A stretch of DNA of 64,000 nt from Pleionea mediterranea (lineage in GTDB: Bacteria; Pseudomonadota; Gammaproteobacteria; Enterobacterales; Kangiellaceae): contig NZ_QGGU01000001.1 of the NCBI RefSeq assembly GCF_003148745.1, positions 11,536 to 75,535 of the forward strand. The letters run 5' to 3'. A program made the position numbers and the translations under genes. Below the pieces are notes generated by a model. The model ran no database searches and was not told the DNA's origin. It saw only the letters and a list, made by a program, of their open reading frames with translations. Positions 13,621 through 57,273 of this stretch are shown piece by piece (the stretch's first letter is position 1; the number at the start of each line of letters is the position of its first letter).

Positions 13621-15864
13621 ATGAAACTTTTCAGTCTGGTGGCGTTAATGTGTTTCAGCTATTCTTGGGCACAAGCTAAAAACATTAGGCAGTTAATATC
13701 AGTTGAGCAGCAGGGCTGGCAGAATCTGGTACAGGTACAAGCCAAAAGTAAAGAAGACTTTTTTAAACTCAGTATTTCGCATCACGGTGAATTACTGGAA
13801 AGTAATAAAGATGCGCTAACGGTTACCTTAAATCTTACCGACGCACAGCTCGAAAAACTTAACAATCTGGGCTTTGATATCACCGTCGCCGACAGTTGGA
13901 AGCAACAGCGTAAAGCGCAGCTGAACCAATTGCTTGACCGTAAGCTTACCAAGCAACTAACAGGTATTCCCAACTACCCATGTTATCCGACGGTGGAAGA
14001 AACCTATGCTGATGCCGAACAGTTGGCGACAGACCACAGTACTCTAACGGAGTGGATAGACGTAGGCGATTCCTGGAGCAAAACGCGAGAGCGCGGTGGT
14101 TATGATTTAAGGGTATTAAAAATTACCAATCAGTCTGTTACAGATGAAAAGCCCGTATTGTTTGTACACAGCGCTATGCACGCCCGTGAATACACCACCG
14201 CAGCACTCAATCTGGCGTTTGCCAAACAACTACTCAACAGCTACGCTACCGATGCAGATACTCGATGGATTGTTGATCATCATGAAGTTCATTTAATGTT
14301 TCAGATGAATCCCGATGGTCGAAAGTACGCAGAAACCGGCGTGTTATGGCGCAAAAATGTCAACGATCTTCACTGTCAAAGCTCTCCGGGTATCGATTTG
14401 AACCGTAACTTCAGCTACTTTTGGAATTCAACCGATGGCGTTGGCTCCAGTGGCGATGCGTGTGCCAATACTTATCGCGGTCCTTTGGCTGCTTCAGAGC
14501 CCGAAACAGAGGTAGTTGAAGCTTATGTGCGCAGTATTTTTAGCGACAATCGGGGCGAAAGCGATTCTGACGCAGCACCTCTCGACACGCCGGGAATGCA
14601 TATTGATTTACACAGCTACAGTGAGCTGGTTTTATGGCCCTGGGGTCACGATTACGATCCGGCACCTAATGGCCCGCAACTACAAACACTCGGTCGCAAG
14701 CTCGCAAGTTTTAATGACTATTATCCAACGCAAAGTACCGGGCTGTATCCGACCGATGGTACCAGCGACGATGTTAGTTATGGTGAGTTGGGTGTTGCGG
14801 CGATTACTTTTGAGCTGGGTACTGCGTTTTTTCAATCTTGCGAGGTGTACAACACACAAGTAAAGCCAGATAATCTGGAGGCATTAAAATATGCGGCCAA
14901 AGTTGTTCGGGCGCCATATAAGTTGCCTGCTGGCCCCGACCTATTACAGCTGCGAGGAAATACCAGTTCACATCCGCAAATACTTCCTGGTGATACATTA
15001 TCGATCACGGCAACTGCAGACGACACACGATTCAACAACAGCAATGGTGATGAGCCGACGCAAGATATTACTGCGGTATCGCTTTTTGTCAACACGCCAC
15101 CTTGGCAGATGGGGACAACCCCGATTCCCATGACCGCCAGTGATAGCAGTTTTAATAGCGGCGTTGAAGCGGTCAGTGCTGAAGTTAATACCACGGGGTG
15201 GGCACTTGGTGAGTATGTGATTTATATACAAGCACAAGACAGCGAAGGCAACAATGGACCCGTCAGTGCTTTACTGGTGACCGTTAATAGCAACCAAAGT
15301 CCTTTAGCTGATTTCAGTGTAACGTGTGACTCCCTCGATTGTCATTTCGATGCATCCAATAGTAGTGATGACTCATCTATCGAAAGTTACCAATGGCAAC
15401 TCAGTGACGGCGCTCAGTTAACCGGTGTTACTGCTAATCACCGTTTTGTTGAATCAGGAAGTTACCAGATAACCTTAATAGTAACGGACGACCGAGGCGC
15501 AACCGGTGAGCAAAGCATGATGCTAGAAATAACAGCTCCAAATCAGAATCCTGAGGCTGAATTTAGTGTAAGTTGTGAACACCTAAGCTGCACATTGAAT
15601 GCGTCCAGCAGTACCGATGACACTGCAATAAGCAGTTATGATTGGCAATTAAGCGATGGAGCGTCACTTAGCGGACAAACTGTCAGTCATAGTTTTTCTA
15701 ATGCTGGTAGCTATTCTGTTGAACTAACCGTAACCGATGACGCAGGCGCAAACGATGTTCGCACACGAAGTATCACCGTTAAAGCAAAATCGTCTAGTGG
15801 TGGTGCATTAGTCTGGTTCAGCTTAATGTTTTTAACTTTAATTAGGTATCGAATAAAATACTAA
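13621..15864 (+). CDS. Secreted M14-family zinc carboxypeptidase with propeptide, two PKD domains and a GlyGly-CTERM sorting signal
   Basis: 747 aa. Signal peptide MKLFSLVALMCFSYSWAQA. M14 motifs HSAMHAREYTT (HxxE zinc site), NPDG and NRNF are present. Two PKD repeats (FDASNSSDDSSIESYQWQLSDG... and LNASSSTDDTAISSYDWQLSDG...) follow. The C-terminus SSSGGALVWFSLMFLTLIRYRIKY reads Gly-Gly, then a hydrophobic helix, then a basic tail. Confidence 0.8.
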   Translation: MKLFSLVALMCFSYSWAQAKNIRQLISVEQQGWQNLVQVQAKSKEDFFKLSISHHGELLESNKDALTVTLNLTDAQLEKLNNLGFDITVADSWKQQRKAQLNQLLDRKLTKQLTGIPNYPCYPTVEETYADAEQLATDHSTLTEWIDVGDSWSKTRERGGYDLRVLKITNQSVTDEKPVLFVHSAMHAREYTTAALNLAFAKQLLNSYATDADTRWIVDHHEVHLMFQMNPDGRKYAETGVLWRKNVNDLHCQSSPGIDLNRNFSYFWNSTDGVGSSGDACANTYRGPLAASEPETEVVEAYVRSIFSDNRGESDSDAAPLDTPGMHIDLHSYSELVLWPWGHDYDPAPNGPQLQTLGRKLASFNDYYPTQSTGLYPTDGTSDDVSYGELGVAAITFELGTAFFQSCEVYNTQVKPDNLEALKYAAKVVRAPYKLPAGPDLLQLRGNTSSHPQILPGDTLSITATADDTRFNNSNGDEPTQDITAVSLFVNTPPWQMGTTPIPMTASDSSFNSGVEAVSAEVNTTGWALGEYVIYIQAQDSEGNNGPVSALLVTVNSNQSPLADFSVTCDSLDCHFDASNSSDDSSIESYQWQLSDGAQLTGVTANHRFVESGSYQITLIVTDDRGATGEQSMMLEITAPNQNPEAEFSVSCEHLSCTLNASSSTDDTAISSYDWQLSDGASLSGQTVSHSFSNAGSYSVELTVTDDAGANDVRTRSITVKAKSSSGGALVWFSLMFLTLIRYRIKY

Positions 15865-15903: not shown

Positions 15904-16415
15904 GTTTATAGGTAACAGGGGCGAGCCATTAAAGCTTCATAGCGAATATTTAAAACATTTTTAGTAGGACTAAAAATTGGACACCTTAATCAAAGGAATT
16001 GTTAAGCACATCACTTAGCGTTATAGATCAACAGCGTATTAACATTAATTGAGACAGAGTGGTTGAATAACTGGAAATAACTTTTAAGCAAGGTTTTCCT
16101 TAATATTAATTGAAAATTAATATCTCAATATAAGAGCTGATTTCAACCGTTTTAGTTGATTTTTAAAACAAAAATACATCTATTGCGTCAATGTACGATA
16201 CAGATAAGCCCTACCTTAAAGTCCACTTAATATGGCTGTTAATTTCTATCTTTATTAAAGCTTATAAGCAGTTTCAATCTTAGAATATTTTTATTTAACG
16301 CTTAGTGACTTTCTCAACGACAAACGTAATTGCGTCGCCTACGCTTTAATTAATAACCGTAGGAACAAGCGAAGTATTACTTTTCGATTAGCACTGAATT
16401 TAATGGAGTATTGAG

Positions 16416-18635
16416 ATGATCGGTTCGGAGCGACTGGCGCAGCAATCACGCTTAGGCAATGTATTAATTGAAAAAGGCTGGATAAGTCAGGAGCAATTGG
16501 GTGAAGCGCTGGTTTATCAGCATCAACGAGAAACAAAACTCGGTGAGGCGTTAATTGAACTTGGCTTTATAAACCAATCTCAATTGAGTCAAGCGTTAAA
16601 GCGCCAAAGCTGGAGTCGTTCTACCATTGCCGGTTTGCTGTTAGCCGCCTCTCAAATGTTTATTGCTGCTTGCAGCAGTGATGGCAGTAAAGAAAACGCT
16701 GTTGAAATTACAGCCGTGGCTCACGCGAAACCATCGGTTGATATTACTTCTCCTACGGGTGGTTCCGAGTTTGATCAAAACACAACCGTTACCTTTACCG
16801 CAAACGCAAGCAATGCGAACGATGAAAATATTACCGGACAAGTTGTCTGGATTTCGGATATTGATGGTGAGCTGGGCACAGGAGGCTCCATCAGCAAAAG
16901 TTTATCGGCGGGCAATCATACCATTATTGCTGAAGTTACTGATTCTAACGGTGCCGAAGCGTCAGAGTCGATTACTATTTCGGTTTCATCGTCGGAAGAT
17001 TCAGCGCCTGTGGTTTTAATTGGCTCGCCATCAAACAGGTCATCTTTCACTGAAGGTACGGTTATTGAATTTGTGGGGGAAGCAAGCGACTCTGAAGATG
17101 GTAATCTTGGCAGTGACATACGTTGGACGTCCAGCATTGATGGTGAGTTGGGCATTGGCGACAGTGTTAACACGACGTTGAGTGCGGGCAGTCATGTCGT
17201 TACAGCAAGGGTAACCGATTCAGCTGATAATGAACGATCTCATTCAATACATCTCTCTGTACAAAGTGCTCCCGATATGGCGCCAGTCGTTTCCATTACT
17301 TCACCTGGTAATGGTTCTAGCTTTAATGCTGGCGATAATATCGCTTTTACTGCGAATGCATCCGATAACGAAGACGGCAATCTGGGTGCATCGATACAAT
17401 GGACTTCTAACATTGATGGTAATCTTGGCAGCGGATCCAGTATTACTTCGGCTCTCAGTACCGGCAGCCATGTCATTACTGCAAGCGTAGCGGACTCAAA
17501 CGGGCAGCAAGTGTCTGAAACCATCAATGTAACCGTTAACAGTGCATCAGCCACTGCGCCTCAGCTTAGTATCACTTCGCCGTCCAGCGGTTCGGAATTT
17601 AATTCCGATGAAAGCATTTCGTTTTCTGCTAATGCTTCCGATAACGAAGACGGTAATTTGGGCAGCAGTATCCTTTGGTCATCGAATCTTGATGGTCAGC
17701 TGGGGAGTGGCGCCAACATCAGCTCTCAGCTCAGCGCCGGCAGTCATACTATCACCGCATCGGTAAATGACTCGGACGGTAATCAGGTGAATAAGGTGAT
17801 TCAGTTGACTGTGAATGATGCCTCAAATGTGCCCCCAGAACTTGCTATCACATCACCTTCCAGTGGTGACAGCTTTAATGATGCTGAGGCGATCAGTTTT
17901 ACCGCGACTGCCAACGATGAAGAAGAGGGCAATATTGGCCATGCCGTACAATGGAATTCGAGCATTGATGGCGATTTTGGCAATGGTGCGAATGTTTCTC
18001 ATACATTAAGTAGTGGCAGTCATGTGATAACGGCAACTGTAAGCGACACTGAAGGTGAGGCCGTCTCACAAGTGATCAATATAAACGTAACAGAAGCAGA
18101 AGACGCTGCTCCTACGGTTGCCATTACTTCGCCTGCTGGCGGTTCCAGTATTCCGGAAAATGAAACGGTGACGTTAACGGCCACTGCTTCCGATGAGGAA
18201 GACGGTGATCTGGGAAGCAGTATCGTCTGGTATTCGGATATGGATGGTCAGATTGGCCAAGGCAGTGAAATAAGCCCTGATCTCACAACTGGAGAACATC
18301 AGATTACCGCTGAAGTTACCGACTCACAAGGTCAGTTCAGCCAGGCGCAAATTCAAATTACAGTAATCGTGGTTGACGGTGTTGCCGTTGTCAGTTGGCA
18401 GCCGCCTGTGTCAAACACCGATGAAACACCATTAAGTGGATTGGCCGGGTTTAAAATCTATTATGGTGATGACCAAAATAATTTAAACAATGTGTTAGTG
18501 ATCAATGATCCATTGCAATTGTCTTATGATTTTGACTCGCTTATCCAGGGTAAAACTTATTATTTTGCTGTGACAGCCGTTGATATTTACGGAATTGAAA
18601 GCAGAAAGTCTGAGGTTGTTTCCAAACAACTTTAA
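16416..18635 (+). CDS. MshEN-domain (c-di-GMP receptor) protein fused via one TM/signal-anchor segment to six PKD/Ig-like repeats and a C-terminal FN3 domain
   Basis: 739 aa with a GGAG-N7-ATG RBS. Residues 12-35 (RLGNVLIEKGWISQEQLGEALVYQ) and 41-64 (KLGEALIELGFINQSQLSQALKRQ) are two tandem 24-residue motifs separated by a 5-residue spacer. Both match the MshEN consensus RLGxxLIxxG(I/F)(L/V)xxxxLxxxLxxQ. Basic residues (KRQSWSR) are followed by the hydrophobic stretch TIAGLLLAASQMFIAAC. Six ~92-aa repeats follow, each ITSP..G..F......I.F.A.A.D.EDG.LG..I.W.S..DG.LG.G......LS.G.H.ITA.V.DS.G. The protein ends in an FN3-like WQPPVSNTDETPLSGLAGFKIYYG...GKTYYFAVTAVDIYGIES. Confidence 0.75.
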   Translation: MIGSERLAQQSRLGNVLIEKGWISQEQLGEALVYQHQRETKLGEALIELGFINQSQLSQALKRQSWSRSTIAGLLLAASQMFIAACSSDGSKENAVEITAVAHAKPSVDITSPTGGSEFDQNTTVTFTANASNANDENITGQVVWISDIDGELGTGGSISKSLSAGNHTIIAEVTDSNGAEASESITISVSSSEDSAPVVLIGSPSNRSSFTEGTVIEFVGEASDSEDGNLGSDIRWTSSIDGELGIGDSVNTTLSAGSHVVTARVTDSADNERSHSIHLSVQSAPDMAPVVSITSPGNGSSFNAGDNIAFTANASDNEDGNLGASIQWTSNIDGNLGSGSSITSALSTGSHVITASVADSNGQQVSETINVTVNSASATAPQLSITSPSSGSEFNSDESISFSANASDNEDGNLGSSILWSSNLDGQLGSGANISSQLSAGSHTITASVNDSDGNQVNKVIQLTVNDASNVPPELAITSPSSGDSFNDAEAISFTATANDEEEGNIGHAVQWNSSIDGDFGNGANVSHTLSSGSHVITATVSDTEGEAVSQVININVTEAEDAAPTVAITSPAGGSSIPENETVTLTATASDEEDGDLGSSIVWYSDMDGQIGQGSEISPDLTTGEHQITAEVTDSQGQFSQAQIQITVIVVDGVAVVSWQPPVSNTDETPLSGLAGFKIYYGDDQNNLNNVLVINDPLQLSYDFDSLIQGKTYYFAVTAVDIYGIESRKSEVVSKQL
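16725..18370 (+). repeat. Six tandem ~276-nt coding repeats (PKD/Ig-like domain array)
   Basis: Periodicity is visible at DNA and protein level. GATGGTGAGCTGGGCA recurs at ~16862 and ~17140. The motifs ...ITSP..G.S.F... and ...DNEDGNLG... recur every ~92 aa. Confidence 0.8.
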
Positions 18636-18842: not shown

Positions 18843-19031
18843 ATGAAATTTTTTATTGTTAGCTTAATTGTTGTTTTAAACTTTGCTATATCTGGCTGCG
18901 CAACGAATGATGTACAGAATTACCCTGACCAGGCGAAATCAGAGCAGCCTAAGCAGGATACAAAGGAAGAAAAAAAGCAGAGGAACTGTCAACCTAAACG
19001 TACTGGCTCTCGTATTGGCGGACGCTGTTAA
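18843..19031 (+). CDS. Small lipoprotein (~42-aa mature, Lys/Glu-rich, 2 Cys)
   Basis: 62 aa. MKFFIVSLIVVLNFAISGC has an ISGC lipobox. The overlapping ORF at 18883-19080 was rejected in favour of this frame because of the signal peptide. Confidence 0.45.
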   Translation: MKFFIVSLIVVLNFAISGCATNDVQNYPDQAKSEQPKQDTKEEKKQRNCQPKRTGSRIGGRC

Positions 19032-19180: not shown

Positions 19181-19711
19181 TTAGCAATCGGCCGTCACCA
19201 CAGATACGGTACAGTCTGGATTACCAAACGAATCATAAATTACATAACAGCCCTGATTGGTTGGCACGGAAAAGCCGGGAATGTCATAGCCGATTAATGT
19301 GTATTGATTGTTGATCTGACTGATGAGATTGGTGCCAGACAATTCGATAAAATCCAGCATGGTAAGTTGATCAGCAATTTCAGCAACGCTCTCGGGACAT
19401 AAATTTCGCCAGTCCACTTCTGCTGATCCAAAAGGAAAATTAATAACATAAGCCTGTTGGCCTACGCCACCCGGATTGGTTGCGGCAACTGTCAGTCCTG
19501 AGGCCAATGCCTTGGCTTTGGTCATGCCTATGGTTGAACGGAGTCCCCCAGCAATGCCGTTAAGAGTGCTCGCACGAGCGGATGACTGTATATCGATAAA
19601 TTTACTGGCTGCGACGGTTGAAAGAATGGCTAAGATAGTAATTACAACCACCAGTTCGATCAGGGTAAAACCCCTTGTTTTAACACTGATTCCTGCAAAG
19701 CTTTCATGCAT
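19181..19711 (-). CDS. Type IVa pilin, MSHA-like (orphan; no assembly genes nearby)
   Basis: 176 aa. Leader MHESFAGISVKTRG, then FTLIELVVVITILAILSTVAA: a class III prepilin signal with Glu at +5 and a hydrophobic N-terminal helix. The C-terminus carries a Cys pair (DCTVSVVTADC). An AAGGA RBS precedes it. Confidence 0.85.
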   Translation of the reverse strand: MHESFAGISVKTRGFTLIELVVVITILAILSTVAASKFIDIQSSARASTLNGIAGGLRSTIGMTKAKALASGLTVAATNPGGVGQQAYVINFPFGSAEVDWRNLCPESVAEIADQLTMLDFIELSGTNLISQINNQYTLIGYDIPGFSVPTNQGCYVIYDSFGNPDCTVSVVTADC

Positions 19712-39113: not shown

Positions 39114-42100
39114 GTGAGTAACTGTACAGCACCTTATAATATCAAGTCTATTGCTGCACTTCTTTGCGGTTTATTTTTGCTGGCAAGTGTCAACAGTTTT
39201 GCCAGTAGCCCTATCTATCATCAGCTTGAAACCATTGATGTGGAGTCTGGATTACCTCAGTCGACAGTTAGAGCGATTACTCAGGATCAATTTGGGTTCA
39301 TTTATTTTGCCACCGATGAAGGGATCTCTCAGTTTGATGGCATTAGTCACAAAAATATCCAGTCGACTGCTAAAGAACTACAGTCTCTGTTTAGCTTTTC
39401 TTCATTATGTGACTCCGAAAATGGATTATGGGCGGGCTCTCTGGATGGCGGTGTGCTTTATTACTCAGCTTCGAGCCGGCAGTGGAAAGAATTTTTACTC
39501 AGTGACATATTTGGTGCCGAAGCTGGCAAACAAGTGATTGGTTGCAGCAAAGATATTGATAACAATATCTGGTTTATTACTGAGCGGGGCTTATTTTCAC
39601 TGGGTGTCGATGAAAATATTGAGTTAATCAGAAAAGATTCATTCTGGATTGAAGGCAACAATCAGGTGAATCATTTAATGATCACGGAAGAAAATCGTTT
39701 TTATATTGCTACTGAGCAAGGGCTGTATACATTGAACTATGGCAGGTTTACGAAACTGGCATCGTATAGTCAGCCTGCGACACGAGTCGTGCAAACATTA
39801 CTGGATGCTCGAGGTCGGCTTTGGGTACTTAATGAATCCTCCGTATCGGTATACAACAATAACAAAGGCGAGTGGGAAATAATTGCTTCTTCGCTTATTG
39901 GCCAGCTTAATCGAAAAGTTGCTCATGAACGGTTAATTGATATTTTTCAGGATTCGGCCGGGCGCACATGGATTGGAACCGAAACACAGGGAATACTGAT
40001 AATTGATGAAAACAATCAGTCGTTGCATCATTTGAAAAAAAATCCCTCATACGGAAATTTACCGGATAACCATATTACTTCTATATATCAGTCACGAGAC
40101 AATGTTATGTGGCTAGGTACCTGGTTAAGTGGGGCGATAAAACTAATCCCGTCATTGCAAGGTATAGACACCACCCGAGTTTTTTCAACCAACAATGGAG
40201 AGATTGTTGAGCCCAGCATTCGATCCATTTATCGTTCCGAGACAGGTGAGCTATGGGTAGGTACTGATAATGCTGGCGTATTGCTTTCTGATGGTAATGG
40301 TAAGTCTTATACTCAATATAAGCGAGTGAGTGACGCGAGTGGGCTTGCAATGAGTGCTGAAAATTATTACCAAAAGCAACCCAGTTTTACGTTACCCAGT
40401 AATACGGTTCGAAACTTTTATCAGCGCAATAATGGTGATTTTTTGATTGGTACTGATCGAGGATTATTAAAGCTTACCGATCAAGGTTTTGAATACTTGG
40501 GACAAAATATTGAAGCAGCTCTAAGTACTGGTGACTTAATTCGCGGTGTGCTTGAAGACTCAAAAAATACACTTTGGGTTGGCACTTATGATAAAGGCTT
40601 GTTCTGGTTTAATGATGAAACAGGACAATATAATCGAATATCATTATCACAAAATTCACTGATTGATAGAGTGGCGCAGGTGCATCTTTCGATGGATGGG
40701 ATGCTCTGGGTGGGCACGGATACACAAGGCTATTTTATTGTAGATCCGATACAAAAAAGCGTAGTTGAACATATCCATTTTAATATGCCGAACCGACTGA
40801 GAGCTCCCGGTAATTCAATATGGAGTTTTTATCAGCCTAACTCGCAGACCATGTGGGTGGGTTCTTATGGACAGGGCTTAGGGCAATTAAATCTTCAGTC
40901 AAGAGTATTCACTTATTTTCGCGAGTCGGATGGATTACCAAACGATGTAATCTATAGCATTACGCAAGATCAGCAAGGTTGGTTTTGGGTTTCTACCAAT
41001 CAGGGATTAGCTCGATTTTCTCCAGGCAAAAAAAAGTTTATCAGCTTAAATAAAGTACATGGCTTGCCACATTCTGAGTTTAATTCGGGGGCGTATTTTA
41101 AGGATGATTCCGGACGACTTTATTATGGCTCACTAAAAGGATTGGTGATTATTGACCCTTCCAAGTTAATGCCCAATACGGGTGAGCATCAAGTCTACTT
41201 AAGTGACTTAAGAGTCAATAACCAGTCAGTTGAGCAAGCGACTAATCATTTAAGTATGCAAGGTGATGTTTTTTCACCAAAACAACTTACGTTTGAAAAG
41301 GATTACGAACAGTTGTTTTTTTCTTTTGCAGTAAGTGACTATTTGGCACCTGATAAAAATATTTTTGCTTATCGATTGTTGGGGTATCAGGATGATTGGG
41401 TATTCAATGAAGGAAAAGTAAGAAGCGCCAGCTTTAATAGTTTACCGGCTGGGTATTATCGGTTAGAAGTAAAAGCAAAAAATAGTTATGGCGTATGGAG
41501 CGATAAGCTTTTAAAAATTGATATACAGTTACAGCCTCCCTGGTGGCTTAGTGGCTGGGCATATTTTTCTTATTTAATTTTAATTATGTCTGTAATCTGG
41601 GGCAGCTTTGAACTTTGGCGTCGCTATCGCAGACAACATAAGTTAATGCTTGAACGATTGCATTATCTGGTTGAGCACCGAACGCAGGAGTTAAAAAATA
41701 AAAATGAGCAACTGAAGTCATTAAACAGTGAATTGCAACATGCTAACGAAAAACTTGAAAAGGTCAGTATGACCGATAGCCTGACAGGGCTGGGCAATCG
41801 ACGTATGATGTACCAGTATCTTGAAAAAGATGTCGGCCGTGTTAATCGGGCTTATATTAGCCTGGAGACCGATCTTCTTAATTTGCCGGACATCCAAAAG
41901 CATGACCTACAATTTTATCTGGTTGATATTGATGATTTTAAAAGCATCAATGATCGTTATGGTCATACTGTTGGCGACAAAGTGCTTATTCAAATAAGTC
42001 AAATACTCACCGCTGTTAGTCGTGAAGGTGATTATGTGGTGCGTTATGGTGGAGAGGAGTTTTTACTGGTGATGCGTGATACACCTCGTAGTGAATCCGC

Positions 42101-42452
42101 TCTCATCGCAGAAAGGATACAGCAAGCATTCCATAGCGAAGAGATAAATATTAGTGCTGACTTAACGATTCCCTTGCGTTGCTCCATTGGTTTTGCACCT
42201 TACCCTTTTTCCAGTCTTTGTCCGGCTCAATTGTTACCTGAACAGGTGATTCAAATTGCAGATATTGCTCTTTATTGTGCAAAAGCCAGTGGGAAAAATT
42301 GCTGGATAGGTTTGAATGGTCATTACAAAAAAGACGAAGTGATAGTTTCGGATGTACTGAATAACACAGAGCAACTTATAGAGCAGGGATTAGTCGAAGT
42401 CATTACTTCTGATAATGTTTCTAAGCTAAACTGGACGCAAGGAAGGCATTAA
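39114..42452 (+). CDS. Sensor diguanylate cyclase: periplasmic two-component-regulator beta-propeller + Y_Y_Y domain, TM, GGDEF
   Basis: 1112 aa. Signal peptide, then a repetitive propeller (WVGT/WIGT repeats). The Y_Y_Y region reads YRLLGYQDDWVF...GYYRLEVKAKNSYGVWSD. After a TM and coiled coil, the GGDEF domain has an intact RYGGEEFLLV. Confidence 0.8.
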   Translation: MSNCTAPYNIKSIAALLCGLFLLASVNSFASSPIYHQLETIDVESGLPQSTVRAITQDQFGFIYFATDEGISQFDGISHKNIQSTAKELQSLFSFSSLCDSENGLWAGSLDGGVLYYSASSRQWKEFLLSDIFGAEAGKQVIGCSKDIDNNIWFITERGLFSLGVDENIELIRKDSFWIEGNNQVNHLMITEENRFYIATEQGLYTLNYGRFTKLASYSQPATRVVQTLLDARGRLWVLNESSVSVYNNNKGEWEIIASSLIGQLNRKVAHERLIDIFQDSAGRTWIGTETQGILIIDENNQSLHHLKKNPSYGNLPDNHITSIYQSRDNVMWLGTWLSGAIKLIPSLQGIDTTRVFSTNNGEIVEPSIRSIYRSETGELWVGTDNAGVLLSDGNGKSYTQYKRVSDASGLAMSAENYYQKQPSFTLPSNTVRNFYQRNNGDFLIGTDRGLLKLTDQGFEYLGQNIEAALSTGDLIRGVLEDSKNTLWVGTYDKGLFWFNDETGQYNRISLSQNSLIDRVAQVHLSMDGMLWVGTDTQGYFIVDPIQKSVVEHIHFNMPNRLRAPGNSIWSFYQPNSQTMWVGSYGQGLGQLNLQSRVFTYFRESDGLPNDVIYSITQDQQGWFWVSTNQGLARFSPGKKKFISLNKVHGLPHSEFNSGAYFKDDSGRLYYGSLKGLVIIDPSKLMPNTGEHQVYLSDLRVNNQSVEQATNHLSMQGDVFSPKQLTFEKDYEQLFFSFAVSDYLAPDKNIFAYRLLGYQDDWVFNEGKVRSASFNSLPAGYYRLEVKAKNSYGVWSDKLLKIDIQLQPPWWLSGWAYFSYLILIMSVIWGSFELWRRYRRQHKLMLERLHYLVEHRTQELKNKNEQLKSLNSELQHANEKLEKVSMTDSLTGLGNRRMMYQYLEKDVGRVNRAYISLETDLLNLPDIQKHDLQFYLVDIDDFKSINDRYGHTVGDKVLIQISQILTAVSREGDYVVRYGGEEFLLVMRDTPRSESALIAERIQQAFHSEEINISADLTIPLRCSIGFAPYPFSSLCPAQLLPEQVIQIADIALYCAKASGKNCWIGLNGHYKKDEVIVSDVLNNTEQLIEQGLVEVITSDNVSKLNWTQGRH

Positions 42453-52947: not shown

Positions 52948-53769
52948 TCAGAAGTTTGTGGTCAACTGATACAGTTTTTCGCTGTGAGAAAGTGGACAGA
53001 CAAAAGCAAGTTTAACAGCCATAAGCATTAAATCATCATCAAGTATCGTACTATCATAAAGACGATCACCAACTATTGGAAATCCCGACTCTGCAAGATG
53101 TCGCCTTATTTGATGTTTACGTCCTGTTTCAATGGATACTTCAAGTAGTGATGTTTCATTAACCTTATCGATTGTCAGGGGGATCACATGACTAACACTC
53201 GGCTTGCCATCTATTGGCTGATTGATTGTTTGAGAGGCTTCAAACGGCCATACACCTTCGACCATAGCGTGGTAGGTTTTGCTAATAGCGCGTGTTGCAA
53301 ATAGGTGCGATAATTTTGCGGCAGCGGTTTTAGAATGAGCCACTAAAATAATGCCGCTGGCTGCTCTATCGAGTCGATGGACCACAAAACTATTTCGTTG
53401 TGGTGTTAAATGCTGTTCTGCCCATCGTGTAATGGTGCAATGATCACCCCATTTTGAGCCTTGAGACAATAGCCCTGACGGTTTATTCCAAACACTGTAG
53501 TCGCTTTCGTCGGCAATTAGCTCTGGTACAGAGGGCTCGGCTGAAAGTACCTTTTCATCATAATATATGTGTAAGGTTTGACCGCATTTTAATGTTTTTT
53601 TAGCACGACGAATGCGTTGTGTCTTTTTGCCAGCCGTAAGCCAGACGCAACCCTTATTCATAGCTTCTTTTAGTTTTTGTTTTGATAGTTCAGTATGTGA
53701 GGCAAGGCACTCGATCGCCAGTTGATTGTCAGTAGCAATCTTGATGTGTTGCTCGAACGACTTTAACAT
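52948..53769 (-). CDS. RluA-family pseudouridine synthase
   Basis: 273 aa. HRLDRAASGIILVAHS is the catalytic HRLD...SG motif. Its start overlaps the stop of the upstream GGDEF gene (TAATG). Confidence 0.75.
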   Translation of the reverse strand: MLKSFEQHIKIATDNQLAIECLASHTELSKQKLKEAMNKGCVWLTAGKKTQRIRRAKKTLKCGQTLHIYYDEKVLSAEPSVPELIADESDYSVWNKPSGLLSQGSKWGDHCTITRWAEQHLTPQRNSFVVHRLDRAASGIILVAHSKTAAAKLSHLFATRAISKTYHAMVEGVWPFEASQTINQPIDGKPSVSHVIPLTIDKVNETSLLEVSIETGRKHQIRRHLAESGFPIVGDRLYDSTILDDDLMLMAVKLAFVCPLSHSEKLYQLTTNF

Positions 53770-55508
53770 TATGAGGTTTGATGCTCATCATTGGATGACG
53801 AGTAAATCATACAACGATTTCTACCTGCATGTTTTGCGTCATAAAGCGCTTCATCGGAATGTTTCATTAGCGTATCAAAGTTATATCCGGAAATACGGCT
53901 TACGGTAATACCGAAGCTTGCGGTTATAGTGATTGCTTTATCGTTTACTTTTATATCCAGCTCTGAAATTTCTGTTCTTATTTTATCGGCAATTTCGGAT
54001 GCTTTTTCTAACTCACATCCTGGAAGCAGTATTGCAAATTCCTCACCGCCAATACGGCCAAACAAGTCTACTTTTCTGGTGTGCTTTAAAACCGGTGTTT
54101 TTAACGACTGAAGAACTTGATCACCAATGGGATGACCATGGGTGTCATTAATAAATTTGAATTTATCCAGATCAAATAAGATAAAGCTAACCACTTGTCC
54201 TGTTGATTGATTGTGTAGCAACGCTGACTCGGATTCTTTTGTAAAGTGACGTCGATTGGATATACCGGTTAATGAGTCAAACTCTGCCAGTTGCTTCAGC
54301 TTTATGTGAGTTTGTTTTGTTCGATAAAGCCAAATAAAGATAAAGCTAATCACAAGAGTTAATAGTAGTATCACTAATGATTTATTGGTAGCTTCTTTTT
54401 TAGACAGTGAGCGTTGCAAGGTTAATGACTCATTTTCTTTATTAAGAATTTCGATCTCATTGTTTTTTTCATTAACTTTGTGTTTAATAGTTTGAACAGC
54501 CATACTCTTTAGCTTTGCTTGGTTTAGATTTTTTTTGTCGTAACTATGGTACTTTTCAAAATATTGAATGGCTTTTTTATAGTTATTATTTATAATCGAG
54601 ACTTCATAAAGTGTTTTATAGGCTGCAACAAAAGGTTTATAAGGAATGTTGTCTTCACTCATGGATATGATTTTTTCGGCAAAACTTTTGGCACTCACCA
54701 AGTCATTTTTTTGAAGATAGATTTGGGCTAATAATTGGTAGTGTTCGGATATTAAATAGTTGTATTGAGTGTTTTCTGTACTTGCCAAATGCTTCTTAAG
54801 TAGTTTTTCAGCACCATCAAGGTTCCCTTTGTTAATATTATTTCTTGCGACAAAAGTAATTAAAAAGCTACTGTAGACAGGCTCATTGGCTTTGCTGCAG
54901 TTTTGCAAGACATTCTCTGCCCTTTTCAGTGAGCCGGTGAGATTAAATCGAGACTCAATGATAATGCTATTAGCGGCACAAATTGTTCTTTCGTTAGCAT
55001 TAAACAACAAAGCTTTTTTGGCATTAATTTGACCAAGATCATATTCACCTAACTGGTTATAGAAAATAGCAATGGCCAGATAAGCTCTGCTTGAGACATT
55101 GCTTTGAGAGCTTGTTTCAAGGTGCTTGTTTAAGAACTCGATTTCAGATAAACCTTCCGTCCAATCTCTAGTTATAGCGTAAGTATTCAGTAAAAGAATG
55201 CTGGATTTTGTTTTAAGGTCAGAAGTAGATGCAGATTGTTTTACAAGCTTAACTTTTTGAATGGATGCTTTTGAATTTCCGAGAAGTAAATCCTCCATAC
55301 CTCTTAAAAAACTTAAATAAATTTGCTCTTCTTTAGATAGTTTTTCAGACATTCTCTCTATTTGCTTAAGATCGTGAGAGAATTTTTTTAGATCAGATGT
55401 TCGTAGCTTTTCGGTTTTTTCAAGCTGCTTCCAAAAACTGCTTTTCTCTGTTTCTGAAAAGACATATAGGGATGTTAATAAAATGGAAAAGCACAAAAGG
55501 AACTTCAT
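53769..55508 (-). CDS. Diguanylate cyclase: periplasmic TPR-like helical sensor, TM, GGDEF (paralog A)
   Basis: 579 aa. Signal peptide, helical-repeat region, coiled coil, TM (LVILLLTLVISFIFIWLY). The GGDEF domain has RIGGEEFAILLPG. Confidence 0.85.
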   Translation of the reverse strand: MKFLLCFSILLTSLYVFSETEKSSFWKQLEKTEKLRTSDLKKFSHDLKQIERMSEKLSKEEQIYLSFLRGMEDLLLGNSKASIQKVKLVKQSASTSDLKTKSSILLLNTYAITRDWTEGLSEIEFLNKHLETSSQSNVSSRAYLAIAIFYNQLGEYDLGQINAKKALLFNANERTICAANSIIIESRFNLTGSLKRAENVLQNCSKANEPVYSSFLITFVARNNINKGNLDGAEKLLKKHLASTENTQYNYLISEHYQLLAQIYLQKNDLVSAKSFAEKIISMSEDNIPYKPFVAAYKTLYEVSIINNNYKKAIQYFEKYHSYDKKNLNQAKLKSMAVQTIKHKVNEKNNEIEILNKENESLTLQRSLSKKEATNKSLVILLLTLVISFIFIWLYRTKQTHIKLKQLAEFDSLTGISNRRHFTKESESALLHNQSTGQVVSFILFDLDKFKFINDTHGHPIGDQVLQSLKTPVLKHTRKVDLFGRIGGEEFAILLPGCELEKASEIADKIRTEISELDIKVNDKAITITASFGITVSRISGYNFDTLMKHSDEALYDAKHAGRNRCMIYSSSNDEHQTS

Positions 55509-55509
55509 A

Positions 55510-57273
55510 TTATTTTAAGCTCTCTATTTCGTCATTACTTTCTGTAGGAGGCATAGAGTATACGGTCGTTTTATTTCTACCACTGTGCTTCGATTCATAA
55601 AGCGCTAAGTCAGAGTGCTTCATTAGTGTATCAAAATTGTAGCCTGATATACGGCTGACAGTAACACCAAAGCTGGCTGTTACTGTGAACTCAAACCCTG
55701 ACTCTTTAGTATTCAGTTGCATTAATCCTTTACGAATACCCTCTGCAATTTCTCTTGCTTGTTCTAGCTCACAGCCGGGTAATAATATAGCAAACTCTTC
55801 ACCTCCCATACGGCCAAACAAATCAATCTTTCTTGTAGCATCTAAGACAGGTTTGGGTATGTTTTTTAATACCCAGTCACCTGTAGGGTGGCCGTAAGAG
55901 TCATTTATAGATTTAAATTTATCCAGGTCGAATAAGATTATGCTGACGGCTTGGCCGCTTGCTTTACAATGTATGAGACTCATTTTACATTTTTTTGCAA
56001 AGTGGCGTCGGTTATGAATTCCTGTTAATGAATCAAATTCTGCCAGGTGGCGAAGTTTTATTTGCGTCTTTTTAGTTCTATATGCCCAAAGAGATGTGAA
56101 AATAATTATTAGTATTAAAATTATAATCATTAATGATTTATTTTGAGCTTCTTCCTTTGCTAGCGATTGCTCTAAATTTAATGCTTTATTTTCTTTGTTA
56201 AGTAATTCAATCGTACTGTTTTTCTCAACTATTCTATGATTTGCTAACTGAACTGACATATTTCGAGCTTTTATATCATCGAGATAGAGCTTTTCATATA
56301 AGCTATACTTTTCAAGGAATAATAATGATTTCTGATAATTGCTCTTGATCTTTTCTATTTTATAAAGAACATTGAGAGCCGAAACTAAAGGCTTTAATGG
56401 TGTCTTAGAGTCAGTGTTATCAACAACTTTTGAAGCAAAAGAAGTTGAGCTTGAGTAATCTTTGAGTTGGAAAAAAGCTTCTGCAAGGAGTCTGTAATAT
56501 TCTAAAATAAGTATTTTATAATTGGTTTTTTCTACACTGTTTAAACTGCGGGTTAAAATATCCACTACTTCACCATACTTATTTTGCTCCAGCAAATAAA
56601 TTGCCAAATAGGTATTGTTTAAATTTTCCCATATATGCTCATTTAAAGAGTGACATAAGTTAATTGTATCTTTTAGTGTATTAGTACGTTGTAAAGTATT
56701 AAGATAAATAGATGACTCATTAACCAGTGTCCTTGAAATGCATATATTGCGGTTGCTGTTACTGCTTTTCAATACCCGTGATGCATACTCTTGACCGAGA
56801 TTAAACTCTTCAACTTGATTGTAAAAGATAGCGGCGGTAATAATCCCTCTTTCAAATAAATCCGGATCATTATTGACCTGAGAACTAATACTAAATAATT
56901 CTTCAATGAGTATAAGTCCTTTTGTCCATTCTCTTTGTATTGCGTATATATTGATTAAAACAATAAGTGATTTGTTTTTTAATACAGGAACGCTTGATTT
57001 TTCACGTATAAACTCTAATGTATTTATGGCAGGTAATAGCTGCCCAGATTTCATCTGTTTCAGAGATTTTAAAAACAAAAGGAAATATAGTTCTTCTTGA
57101 TTAAGCTTATCTGCTTTTTCTTCGAATCTGGCTATTTTAAAATTGAATTCAGTTGGATCTGAGCTTCTTAGAGCTTCTATTCTTTCGAGTTCAGCCCATG
57201 CTTCTGAGCCATCATACGCATTACAAATACGTATGATGGCTAATATGACCAAAAGTAATAGCTTTACTTTCAT
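55510..57273 (-). CDS. Diguanylate cyclase: periplasmic TPR-like helical sensor, TM, GGDEF (paralog B)
   Basis: 587 aa with the same architecture. The GGDEF region is highly similar to paralog A (LAEFDSLTGI.NRRHF...ILFDLDKFK.IND..GHP.GD...GR.GGEEFAILLPGCELE...SGYNFDTLMKHSD.ALY). The stop lies 1 nt before paralog A's start. Confidence 0.85.
   Translation of the reverse strand: MKVKLLLLVILAIIRICNAYDGSEAWAELERIEALRSSDPTEFNFKIARFEEKADKLNQEELYFLLFLKSLKQMKSGQLLPAINTLEFIREKSSVPVLKNKSLIVLINIYAIQREWTKGLILIEELFSISSQVNNDPDLFERGIITAAIFYNQVEEFNLGQEYASRVLKSSNSNRNICISRTLVNESSIYLNTLQRTNTLKDTINLCHSLNEHIWENLNNTYLAIYLLEQNKYGEVVDILTRSLNSVEKTNYKILILEYYRLLAEAFFQLKDYSSSTSFASKVVDNTDSKTPLKPLVSALNVLYKIEKIKSNYQKSLLFLEKYSLYEKLYLDDIKARNMSVQLANHRIVEKNSTIELLNKENKALNLEQSLAKEEAQNKSLMIIILILIIIFTSLWAYRTKKTQIKLRHLAEFDSLTGIHNRRHFAKKCKMSLIHCKASGQAVSIILFDLDKFKSINDSYGHPTGDWVLKNIPKPVLDATRKIDLFGRMGGEEFAILLPGCELEQAREIAEGIRKGLMQLNTKESGFEFTVTASFGVTVSRISGYNFDTLMKHSDLALYESKHSGRNKTTVYSMPPTESNDEIESLK

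Follow-up and report, generated by a model that had tools for sequence, protein, structure and literature searches.

An MshEN_N-type cyclic di-GMP module ahead of a predicted lipoprotein signal in an Ig-repeat protein of Pleionea mediterranea, and a recurrent class of similar fusions

Surface structures of bacteria are known to be controlled by cyclic di-GMP (cyclic diguanylate, c-di-GMP) through transcription factors, through PilZ or MshEN domains acting on cytoplasmic enzymes and secretion ATPases, and through the LapD/LapG system. Here we describe a gene of Pleionea mediterranea in which a module of the MshEN kind precedes what appears to be an export signal. The gene lies at positions 16416..18635 on the + strand of the window, by which we mean the whole stretch of 64,000 nucleotides that was analysed. 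Its product of 739 amino acids (aa) consists of an MshEN_N-type module, a short hydrophobic segment ending in a candidate lipobox, six immunoglobulin (Ig)-like repeats and a fibronectin type III (fn3) domain. The open reading frame (ORF) has an exact-sequence match in P. mediterranea WP_109761309.1 (PWK54180.1; UniProt A0A316G305), whose database names are solely ‘Ig-like domain-containing protein’ and ‘Ig-like protein group 3’.

Two described relatives of the module belong to ATPases. MshE (VC0405) of Vibrio cholerae (PDB 5HTL) resembles the window protein in having two 24-residue motifs separated by a 5-residue spacer, and the predicted bundle of the window protein superposes on that of MshE at 1.7 Å. 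MshE, however, continues into MshEN_C (T2SSE_N1) and a cytoplasmic ATPase, whereas the window bundle runs into a signal-like segment. The GSPII-B domain of Thermus thermophilus PilF (PDB 8PDK and others) has a very similar motif I, with the same ‘KGWIS’ turn, and accepts Lys at motif position 1 (compare K41 of the window protein), but it is part of a soluble, cytoplasmic type IV pilus ATPase with three GSPII domains. GSPII-B, with K and L at motif position 1, binds c-di-GMP with a dissociation constant (Kd) of 6 nM (PMC11731258). PMC5013675 gives a Kd of 0.35 µM for the isolated MshEN_N of V. cholerae MshE (residues 1-62).

In other described systems c-di-GMP reaches the envelope by different means. 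NfrB of Escherichia coli and EpsG of Methylobacillus, which belong to polysaccharide machinery, use MshEN or MshEN_N as c-di-GMP input to envelope or biofilm functions, but the regulated domain (a glycosyltransferase or a tyrosine kinase) is cytoplasmic and stays covalently joined to the sensor. In the LapD/LapG/LapA system cytoplasmic c-di-GMP sets the fate of a repeat adhesin at the cell surface, a logic to which the window protein bears some likeness. LapD differs in being a stable dimeric receptor of the inner membrane, with HAMP and degenerate GGDEF-EAL domains, that sequesters a periplasmic protease, and the LapA-type adhesin differs in being a protein of its own that leaves the cell through a type I secretion system. 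In autotransporters and TpsA proteins, the extended signal peptide region (ESPR) lengthens the n-region of a Sec signal on its N-terminal side and modulates export of the precursor. It is about 25 residues long, has no known ligand binding and is not a folded second-messenger receptor; the resemblance to the window protein is confined to being an n-region extension.

The partners of MshEN named by Wang et al. (2016) are ATPase, glycosyltransferase, REC, HD-GYP, CheA, CheX, cyclase and kinase domains. An MshEN_N-Peptidase_M23 combination of Acaryochloris marina (AM1_1153 type; WP_238549350.1) is tabulated in its Supplementary Table 4, and it is the only published architecture joining MshEN_N to an extracytoplasmic enzyme that we found. 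The parts searched of that paper and its supplement note no transmembrane segment, signal peptide, lipoprotein or mechanism for the fusion. Like the window protein it has ‘Q-R-W-R’ followed by a short hydrophobic segment and therefore belongs with the class of fusions described below; it differs in its cargo, an M23 peptidase, and in having no lipobox. In literature on MshEN or c-di-GMP in connection with signal peptides, lipoproteins, transmembrane or periplasmic domains or chaperone-usher systems, with subscription journals thinly covered, no description of the layout was found.

The features of the gene are as follows, with the basis of each in brackets.

16405..16408, + strand: ribosome-binding site (RBS) GGAG, 7-nt spacer to the ATG at 16416-16418 (direct reading)
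16416..18635, + strand: whole gene, 739 aa plus stop (ORF read; exact-sequence look-up)
16449..16520, + strand: MshEN motif I, residues 12-35 (R12-Q35), RLGNVLIEKGWISQEQLGEALVYQ (hidden Markov model (HMM), PDB-sequence match, motif pattern)
16521..16535, + strand: spacer HQRET, residues 36-40 (direct reading; length equal to that of the MshE spacer)
16536..16607, + strand: MshEN motif II, residues 41-64 (K41-Q64), KLGEALIELGFINQSQLSQALKRQ (HMM, PDB-sequence match, motif pattern)
16608..16622, + strand: juxtamembrane SWSRS, residues 65-69, with K62 and R63 the predicted positive n-region (alignment A1)
16623..16670, + strand: predicted h-region TIAGLLLAASQMFIAA, residues 70-85 (T70-A85), weakly hydrophobic, with Ser and Gln inside (reading, insertion energy)
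16662..16673, + strand: candidate lipobox I-A-A-C, residues 83-86, Cys86 codon at 16671-16673 (rules and conservation)
16674..16727, + strand: polar S/G-rich tether SSDGSKENAVEITAVAHA, beginning SSDGSKE, residues 87-104 (reading)
16728..18365, + strand: six Ig-like repeats (Big_7/PKD_4), residues 105-650 (Pfam, repeat analysis)
18366..18632, + strand: C-terminal fn3 domain, residues 651-739 (Pfam fn3 at 657-735, 25.7 bits vs. cutoff 25)

The first-pass annotation of this DNA had described two tandem 24-residue motifs split by HQRET, matching the MshEN consensus essentially throughout and attached to no ATPase. Direct reading and pattern search confirm that observation in every particular. The consensus tested has two copies of RLGxx(L/V/I)(L/V/I)xxG(L/V/I/F)(L/V/I)xxxxLxxxLxxQ with a 5-residue spacer, making a 53-residue unit. 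In six frames of the 64-kb window the strict regular expression for the 24-residue motif matches only twice, both times in this gene. The constrained positions are kept in both halves; the departures are W22 (position 11), as in PilF GSPII-B, and K41 (position 1), which the relaxed motif permits. Residues 12-64 align to the full length (1-53/53) of the NCBIfam model NF053729 (‘cyclic di-GMP-binding domain, MshE-related’) with 62 bits against a cutoff of 38, rising to 67.8 bits for the N-terminal 75 aa alone, and secondary NCBIfam matches are to NfrB and EpsG. Searching PDB sequences with phmmer returned PilF at E 3e-17 and MshE (5HTL) at E 3e-7, the latter aligning residues 10-64 to 7-61. The Pfam profile T2SSE_N (PF05157) is the one that does not recognize the N-terminus, giving no match to the window protein at E<=1. 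This is expected because the MshEN_C half is missing: no MshEN_C (T2SSE_N1) follows the bundle, and the hydrophobic segment begins 5 residues past Q64. No ATPase family is among the Pfam or NCBIfam matches of the protein, which is outside the full MshEN/T2SSE_N family and outside the MshE/GspE/PilB secretion ATPases.

The fold prediction agrees. An AlphaFold2 model of residues 1-100, built from a 17-sequence alignment, has four helices (12-19, 25-38, 42-49 and 54-85) forming a bundle, with a block-mean predicted local distance difference test score (pLDDT) of 84-89 for residues 11-60. The eleven best PDB matches of this model in Foldseek are all c-di-GMP-bound structures of MshE or PilF GSPII-B. 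For the best, 5HTL, the root-mean-square deviation (rmsd) is 1.7 Å across 55 columns that are 42% identical; as the domain is small, the E-values are weak (0.02-0.5). By every sequence-defined feature tested, residues 12-64 are a complete MshEN_N-type module without an ATPase. From the established relation of motif to function, we infer that the predicted bundle binds c-di-GMP.

As a separate observation on the module, FumaraseC_C, DUF4388/PatA_N and DUF2949 recur as sub-threshold Pfam matches of MshEN_N modules, and Foldseek also returns fumarase C-terminal domains. These helical hairpins may be structural kin of MshEN_N or mistaken captures.

The start of the gene appears secure. The RBS had been called good and the fusion unlikely to be an annotation artefact, and both judgements have held. 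At the orthologous loci L003 and L004 the RBS (GGAG/GAGGG) and the ATG are kept, and in all the ATG is conserved, with an in-frame stop upstream, in three orthologs. The window gene has its stop 15 nt 5′ of the ATG, so the ORF cannot be extended further upstream; a nearby upstream stop is also present in L003 and in the more distant L004. Against the close ortholog P0001 (locus L003), codons 11-64 have a ratio of nonsynonymous to synonymous substitution rates (dN/dS) of about 0.11, with dS 0.69. On this codon evidence the MshEN_N part is translated within the protein and is under purifying selection. Promoter and terminator scans did no better than on shuffled sequence, and therefore no statement about operons rests on them.

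What follows the bundle resembles a signal peptide more than a membrane anchor. In the single-copy group to which the window module is closest, marked by a juxtamembrane ‘RQxWxRS’, R68 and A72 are invariant and W66 is nearly so, at least 90% (17 sequences, alignment A1); the three are as conserved as the binding residues. The h-region is modelled as an extension of helix 4 of the bundle. Its crude insertion energy, a 19-residue sum on the Hessa scale, is +3.3, and the segment is therefore weakly hydrophobic. At its end IAAC fits the lipobox pattern tested, [LVI][ASTVI][GAS]C. Cys86, the predicted site of lipidation and cleavage, is the sole cysteine in the 739 residues, and the ortholog P0003 (741 aa, 66% identical) likewise has only one. 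The lipobox is kept as IAAC in P0001 and as ITAC in P0003, where GGGGGS follows and GGGGGSEKAGTEIN... stands at the position of the tether. The n-region charges (K62, R63, R68) and the 16-residue h-region fit the range of signals for signal peptidase II (SPII; h-region about 7-22), but the n-region, 69 residues forming a folded domain, is far longer than the short one of such signals. The segment is preceded by those basic residues and followed by acidic ones, which indicates an N-in orientation; a topology with MshEN_N in the cytoplasm and the Ig/fn3 array outside it is thereby supported. Taken together, the segment points to a predicted cleavable SPII signal peptide rather than a stable anchor. 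The first-pass annotation had proposed an N-in signal anchor wired to the repeats in the manner of LapD/LapG, though it had also marked the IAAC site as a possible lipoprotein signal to be checked. The N-in orientation survives. The anchor sits poorly with a lipobox, a single Cys and marginal hydrophobicity, and the inside-out wiring with a cleavage that would part the sensor from the repeats, which makes LapD-style conformational signalling unlikely.

The remainder of the protein is as had been described, six PKD-like repeats of about 92 aa and an fn3 domain, the latter just above its Pfam cutoff. The repeats have a period of exactly 92 residues (starts at 105, 197, 289, 381, 473 and 565) and are 40-66% identical to one another in amino acids. 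Their Pfam scores are 104.9 bits for Big_7 (six stretches), 61.1 for PKD_4 and 44.9 for PKD. Tandem Repeats Finder detects no repeats at the DNA level; the Ig repeats have diverged. The mature part is strongly acidic, with 89 D+E against 13 K+R. P0003 has the same six repeats and fn3.

The fusion is not peculiar to Pleionea. With residues 1-96 as the query, HMMER was run exhaustively against 1.84 billion representative proteins and gave 3710 matches at E<=1e-3; the counts that follow come from the best 150 of these. The layout recurs in about 53 of the 150: MshEN motif copies, from one to eight of them, then 0-8 mostly basic residues after the terminal Gln, then about 17-25 uncharged residues resembling a signal peptide. 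The crude insertion energy is positive in all 53. A lipobox ends the segment in about 11 of the roughly 53 (LSAC↓GGGG, LTGC↓G, LNAC↓G, LASC↓S, MTGC↓G, LAGC↓GGGG; arrows as marked by the patterns). Many of the others have a c-region of the signal peptidase I (SPI) type, AxA after a Pro, for example SPICPVLA↓SE, PFSPAFA↓AS, SAPVMA↓SS, APAAQA↓GG and TSPANA↓D. An alignment of 38 modules shows the Gly, Leu and Gln positions that contact the ligand to be invariant or almost so. NF053729 scores 172 bits in P0068 (three copies), 145 in P0092, 160 in P0033, 59 in P0040 and 60 in P0054. T2SSE_N was silent in every class member scanned with Pfam, and therefore Pfam-based architecture searches are likely to miss the class.

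Behind the signal-like segment the class members carry a variety of cargoes. Pfam finds Peptidase_C39_2, fn3 with Big_7, and right-handed beta-helix (Beta_helix) domains; several beta-rich domains belong to no family. P0092 and P0114 combine fn3 and Big_7, the domain kinds of the window protein, in another order. Judged by type, these cargoes are extracytoplasmic. Other searches returned little of the class. Word-indexed homolog searches gave 1 match and 3 matches, and with the 38-sequence profile only small stand-alone tandem MshEN_N proteins. The sole match of a genome-contig scan was to an unrelated Ig domain in a metagenome-assembled genome of the Fimbriimonadaceae, and a metagenome scan with the single protein found one fragment 97% identical and two ordinary PilB-type ATPases. 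The architecture had been called unrecognized. That was fair, but the window protein appears as one member of a much larger class, of which one instance was tabulated in 2016. Read conservatively, a known c-di-GMP module is found here in a setting that is new, recurs and lacks annotation.

Some class members lie next to systems that build surface fibers. P0068 (L011:10001-11092, L012:1948-3039, L013:1141-2232) has three MshEN_N copies, a signal segment and a 135-residue beta-sandwich. On three independent contigs its gene stands between an SCPU subunit gene and genes for a PapD-like chaperone, an usher and a second SCPU protein. P0304 (L018:3638-4750) adjoins another such cluster, in the order SCPU-SCPU-PapD-usher-SCPU. 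These contexts hint at post-translational control by c-di-GMP of a pathway that has no cytoplasmic component. P0117 (L016:8001-8714, L017:6046-6759) comes from the closest sister group of the window N-module. It has a single MshEN_N copy and a ‘PAFA↓AG’ signal, and its gene opens an operon that also encodes a PapD_N chaperone (28.8 bits vs. 23) and a TcfC/CooC_C usher. P0092 is encoded in an exopolysaccharide/PEP-CTERM locus with glycosyltransferases and a sigma-54 two-component pair. The neighbors of P0183 and P0033 are uninformative.

Three side observations concern these members. The three-copy proteins P0068 and P0304 are encoded inside or beside archaic (SCPU/Csu-type) chaperone-usher operons. 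The mature part of P0117 looks pilin-like by eye, with a Ser-rich N-terminal strand, two Cys and the C-terminal ‘YSGHLTITIAAE’. The P0183/P0040 family (about 240 aa; L007:2192-2920, L008:536-1264) has MshEN_N, a ‘SPICPVLA↓SE’ signal and a conserved C-terminal domain (…DRYKNTIPAVYRLTLKGYS…YELMFSVTKQF, with a final Phe) that has no Pfam match, and its gene is convergent with one for a 955-aa trypsin/PDZ protease.

These findings suggest a mechanism. The product would be made as a precursor whose mature form is an acidic lipoprotein of the cell surface or the periplasm, with six Ig-like repeats and fn3. The signal peptide would have an n-region of 69 residues that is itself a complete MshEN_N four-helix receptor for c-di-GMP. 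K62, R63 and R68 would keep this receptor in the cytoplasm, and its last helix would pass through five residues into the weak h-region ending IAA↓C86. The cargo would be translocated by Sec, lipidated at Cys86 and cut by SPII. Since the cut would part the sensor from the cargo, any action of c-di-GMP would have to come before or during export, or else fall on the leftover fragment. The most likely function would be a post-translational checkpoint on export or maturation: c-di-GMP on the membrane-apposed bundle may alter how the Sec machinery, Lgt or LspA handles the adjacent signal. An adhesin-like or matrix-like protein would then be exported or matured in step with the c-di-GMP level of the cell. 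We consider the chances about even that the protein is such a lipoprotein precursor with export or maturation gated by c-di-GMP; the binding, the cleavage and the effect on export are each part of what is predicted.

As the same module, in one to eight copies and with an SPI- or SPII-type signal, precedes many cargoes, it looks like a portable export signal responsive to c-di-GMP. We propose, more tentatively and expecting that it may well not hold, that MshEN_N before a Sec signal is generally a c-di-GMP-gated signal peptide controlling export or maturation precursor by precursor. Its cargoes would include lipoproteins, components of chaperone-usher pili, matrix Ig/fn3 proteins and envelope peptidases. 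A receptor inside the n-region would represent a different principle from the known ones, in that the precursor itself carries the sensor, and a checkpoint needing neither a dedicated secretion ATPase nor a separate receptor. It would let c-di-GMP act on processes of the periplasm and outer membrane, chaperone-usher pili and lipoprotein adhesins among them, with no relay across the membrane, and would add a class of c-di-GMP effectors. It would also offer a small, transferable tag (70-90 residues) to make protein export depend on the messenger. Even without gating, a fusion that recurs in about one-third of the closest MshEN_N relatives calls for explanation.

Several points weigh against the gated-precursor proposal. 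Normal signal peptides come nowhere near an n-region of 69 residues that folds as a domain, and the SPII assignment is based on rules and conservation. Few orthologs carry the Ig-repeat cargo: one 90%-identity cluster and P0003. The cargo associated with chaperone-usher operons is predicted by AlphaFold2 as a beta-sandwich (pLDDT 87) and has no Pfam match; its PDB matches (FlhE, PapA and FimA; Foldseek TM 0.36-0.42) are both mixed and weak, and hhalign against the neighboring SCPU proteins gives probabilities of only 16% and 32%. As this cargo is not demonstrably a pilin, such members could be membrane-tethered regulators. Lastly, P0008, P0014 and P0015 (1158-1184 aa) have about eight MshEN copies over about 960 residues, then a signal-peptide-like …SSPLAAAA↓E and a 175-residue tail. 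They carry the layout to an extreme, and with so many cytoplasmic residues ahead of the hydrophobic segment they are more naturally read as type II membrane proteins than as bearing a signal peptide.

The last two points also favor a reading in which the segment is an uncleaved N-in anchor. The protein would then be a bitopic receptor of the inner membrane, and c-di-GMP would act on the periplasmic array by altering its conformation, its oligomeric state or its sensitivity to proteases, much as in LapD. The topology would be identical to that of the gated precursor, and helix 4, modelled as continuous with the hydrophobic helix (54-85), could transmit movement. We regard a permanent anchor as probably wrong and this reading as unlikely. 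It has to contend with the lipobox, the single conserved Cys and the Gly/Ser tether, with an apolar stretch of about 17 residues that contains Ser and Gln and has a positive crude insertion energy, and with the classical c-regions (Pro, then AxA) of many relatives. A monomeric 53-residue bundle joined to one helix also offers little means of signal transmission. Finally, Pfam and NCBIfam scans of the protein and its immediate neighbors found none of the LapD-type parts: no HAMP, no GGDEF-EAL and no LapG-like or LapA-like partner.

Alternatively, export may be constitutive and the signal cleaved, with the functional product being the 85-residue membrane-tethered fragment left behind. Released perhaps by signal-peptide peptidase or RseP, the fragment could be a small receptor or sink for c-di-GMP, or could serve as a tag for docking or localization, and its amount would report how much cargo had been made. 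Conservation of the N-module independently of the cargo, in proteins with unrelated C-termini, is in keeping with this, as is the conservation of W66, R68 and A72 to the degree of the ligand-contact residues. Such small receptors do exist, stand-alone tandem MshEN_N proteins of 105-170 aa being abundant. Signal-peptide remnants, however, are usually degraded fast, and the reading leaves the frequent fusion of the module to surface, pilus or matrix cargoes unexplained. We judge it quite improbable, in its role for the fragment as in its account of release and of reporting cargo.

It is very doubtful that the MshEN_N-like segment is non-binding or without consequence, a relic or a helical spacer before an ordinary lipoprotein signal. 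Binding has been lost in some MshEN domains, for example XpsE (PMC5013675) and PilF GSPII-A (PMC11731258), and T2SSE_N gives the segment no score. But XpsE and PilF GSPII-A differ at several key positions and the window module does not: every constrained motif position is retained in each half, 38 class members show little or no variation at the Gly, Leu and Gln that contact the ligand, and dN/dS is 0.11.

Least credible by far is initiation at an internal codon such as TTG57 or ATG81, which would put the MshEN-like part outside the protein: TTG57 initiation would indeed yield a textbook lipoprotein signal peptide, MSQALKRQSWSRSTIAGLLLAASQMFIAAC, but TTG57 is missing from the P0003 gene (L004), ATG81 as the start would leave no h-region, and the strong purifying selection on the MshEN_N codons, the 62 bits against a curated HMM, the conserved ATG and RBS with a stop just upstream, and the recurrence of the same fusion in dozens of unrelated proteins all speak against it. 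A start at TTG57 was rejected on its absence from that gene together with the selection on the N-terminal codons.

The surroundings of the window gene include an M14 carboxypeptidase, an orphan MshA/FimT-like pilin, a porin and the pst operon. The principal neighboring features, with the GGDEF proteins of the window, are as follows.

13621-15864, + strand: M14 zinc carboxypeptidase with two PKD domains and the C-terminal tail SSSGGALVWFSLMFLTLIRYRIKY
19181-19711, - strand: orphan type IV pilin-like gene (N_methyl; annotated MshA / FimT family)
39114-42452, + strand: GGDEF protein (Pfam)
53769-55508, - strand: GGDEF protein (Pfam)
55510-57273, - strand: GGDEF protein (Pfam)

The gene had been placed in an island with the pilin and a carboxypeptidase bearing GlyGly-CTERM. 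Both are indeed adjacent. The tail SSSGGALVWFSLMFLTLIRYRIKY fits the GlyGly-CTERM (rhombosortase) pattern by eye, with no detection by HMM, and the P0003 locus has neither the pilin nor the M14 peptidase beside the gene. The pilin gene is convergent with the window gene, has no pilus assembly genes nearby, and accompanies the window gene in close relatives. As the neighbors are not conserved at the P0003 locus, they carry little weight, and a functional link to the pilin and the M14 carboxypeptidase was rejected for want of synteny there.

The three diguanylate cyclases expected in the window are present as three GGDEF proteins, more than 20 kb from the gene. Of these, one carries Reg_prop/Y_Y_Y sensor repeats, one carries TPR, and two lie side by side. 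Pfam finds no EAL domain in any of the three. Between the window gene and the pilin gene, an ORF of 62 aa (18843-19031, + strand) is called in the Logan assembly (L002:7674-7862).

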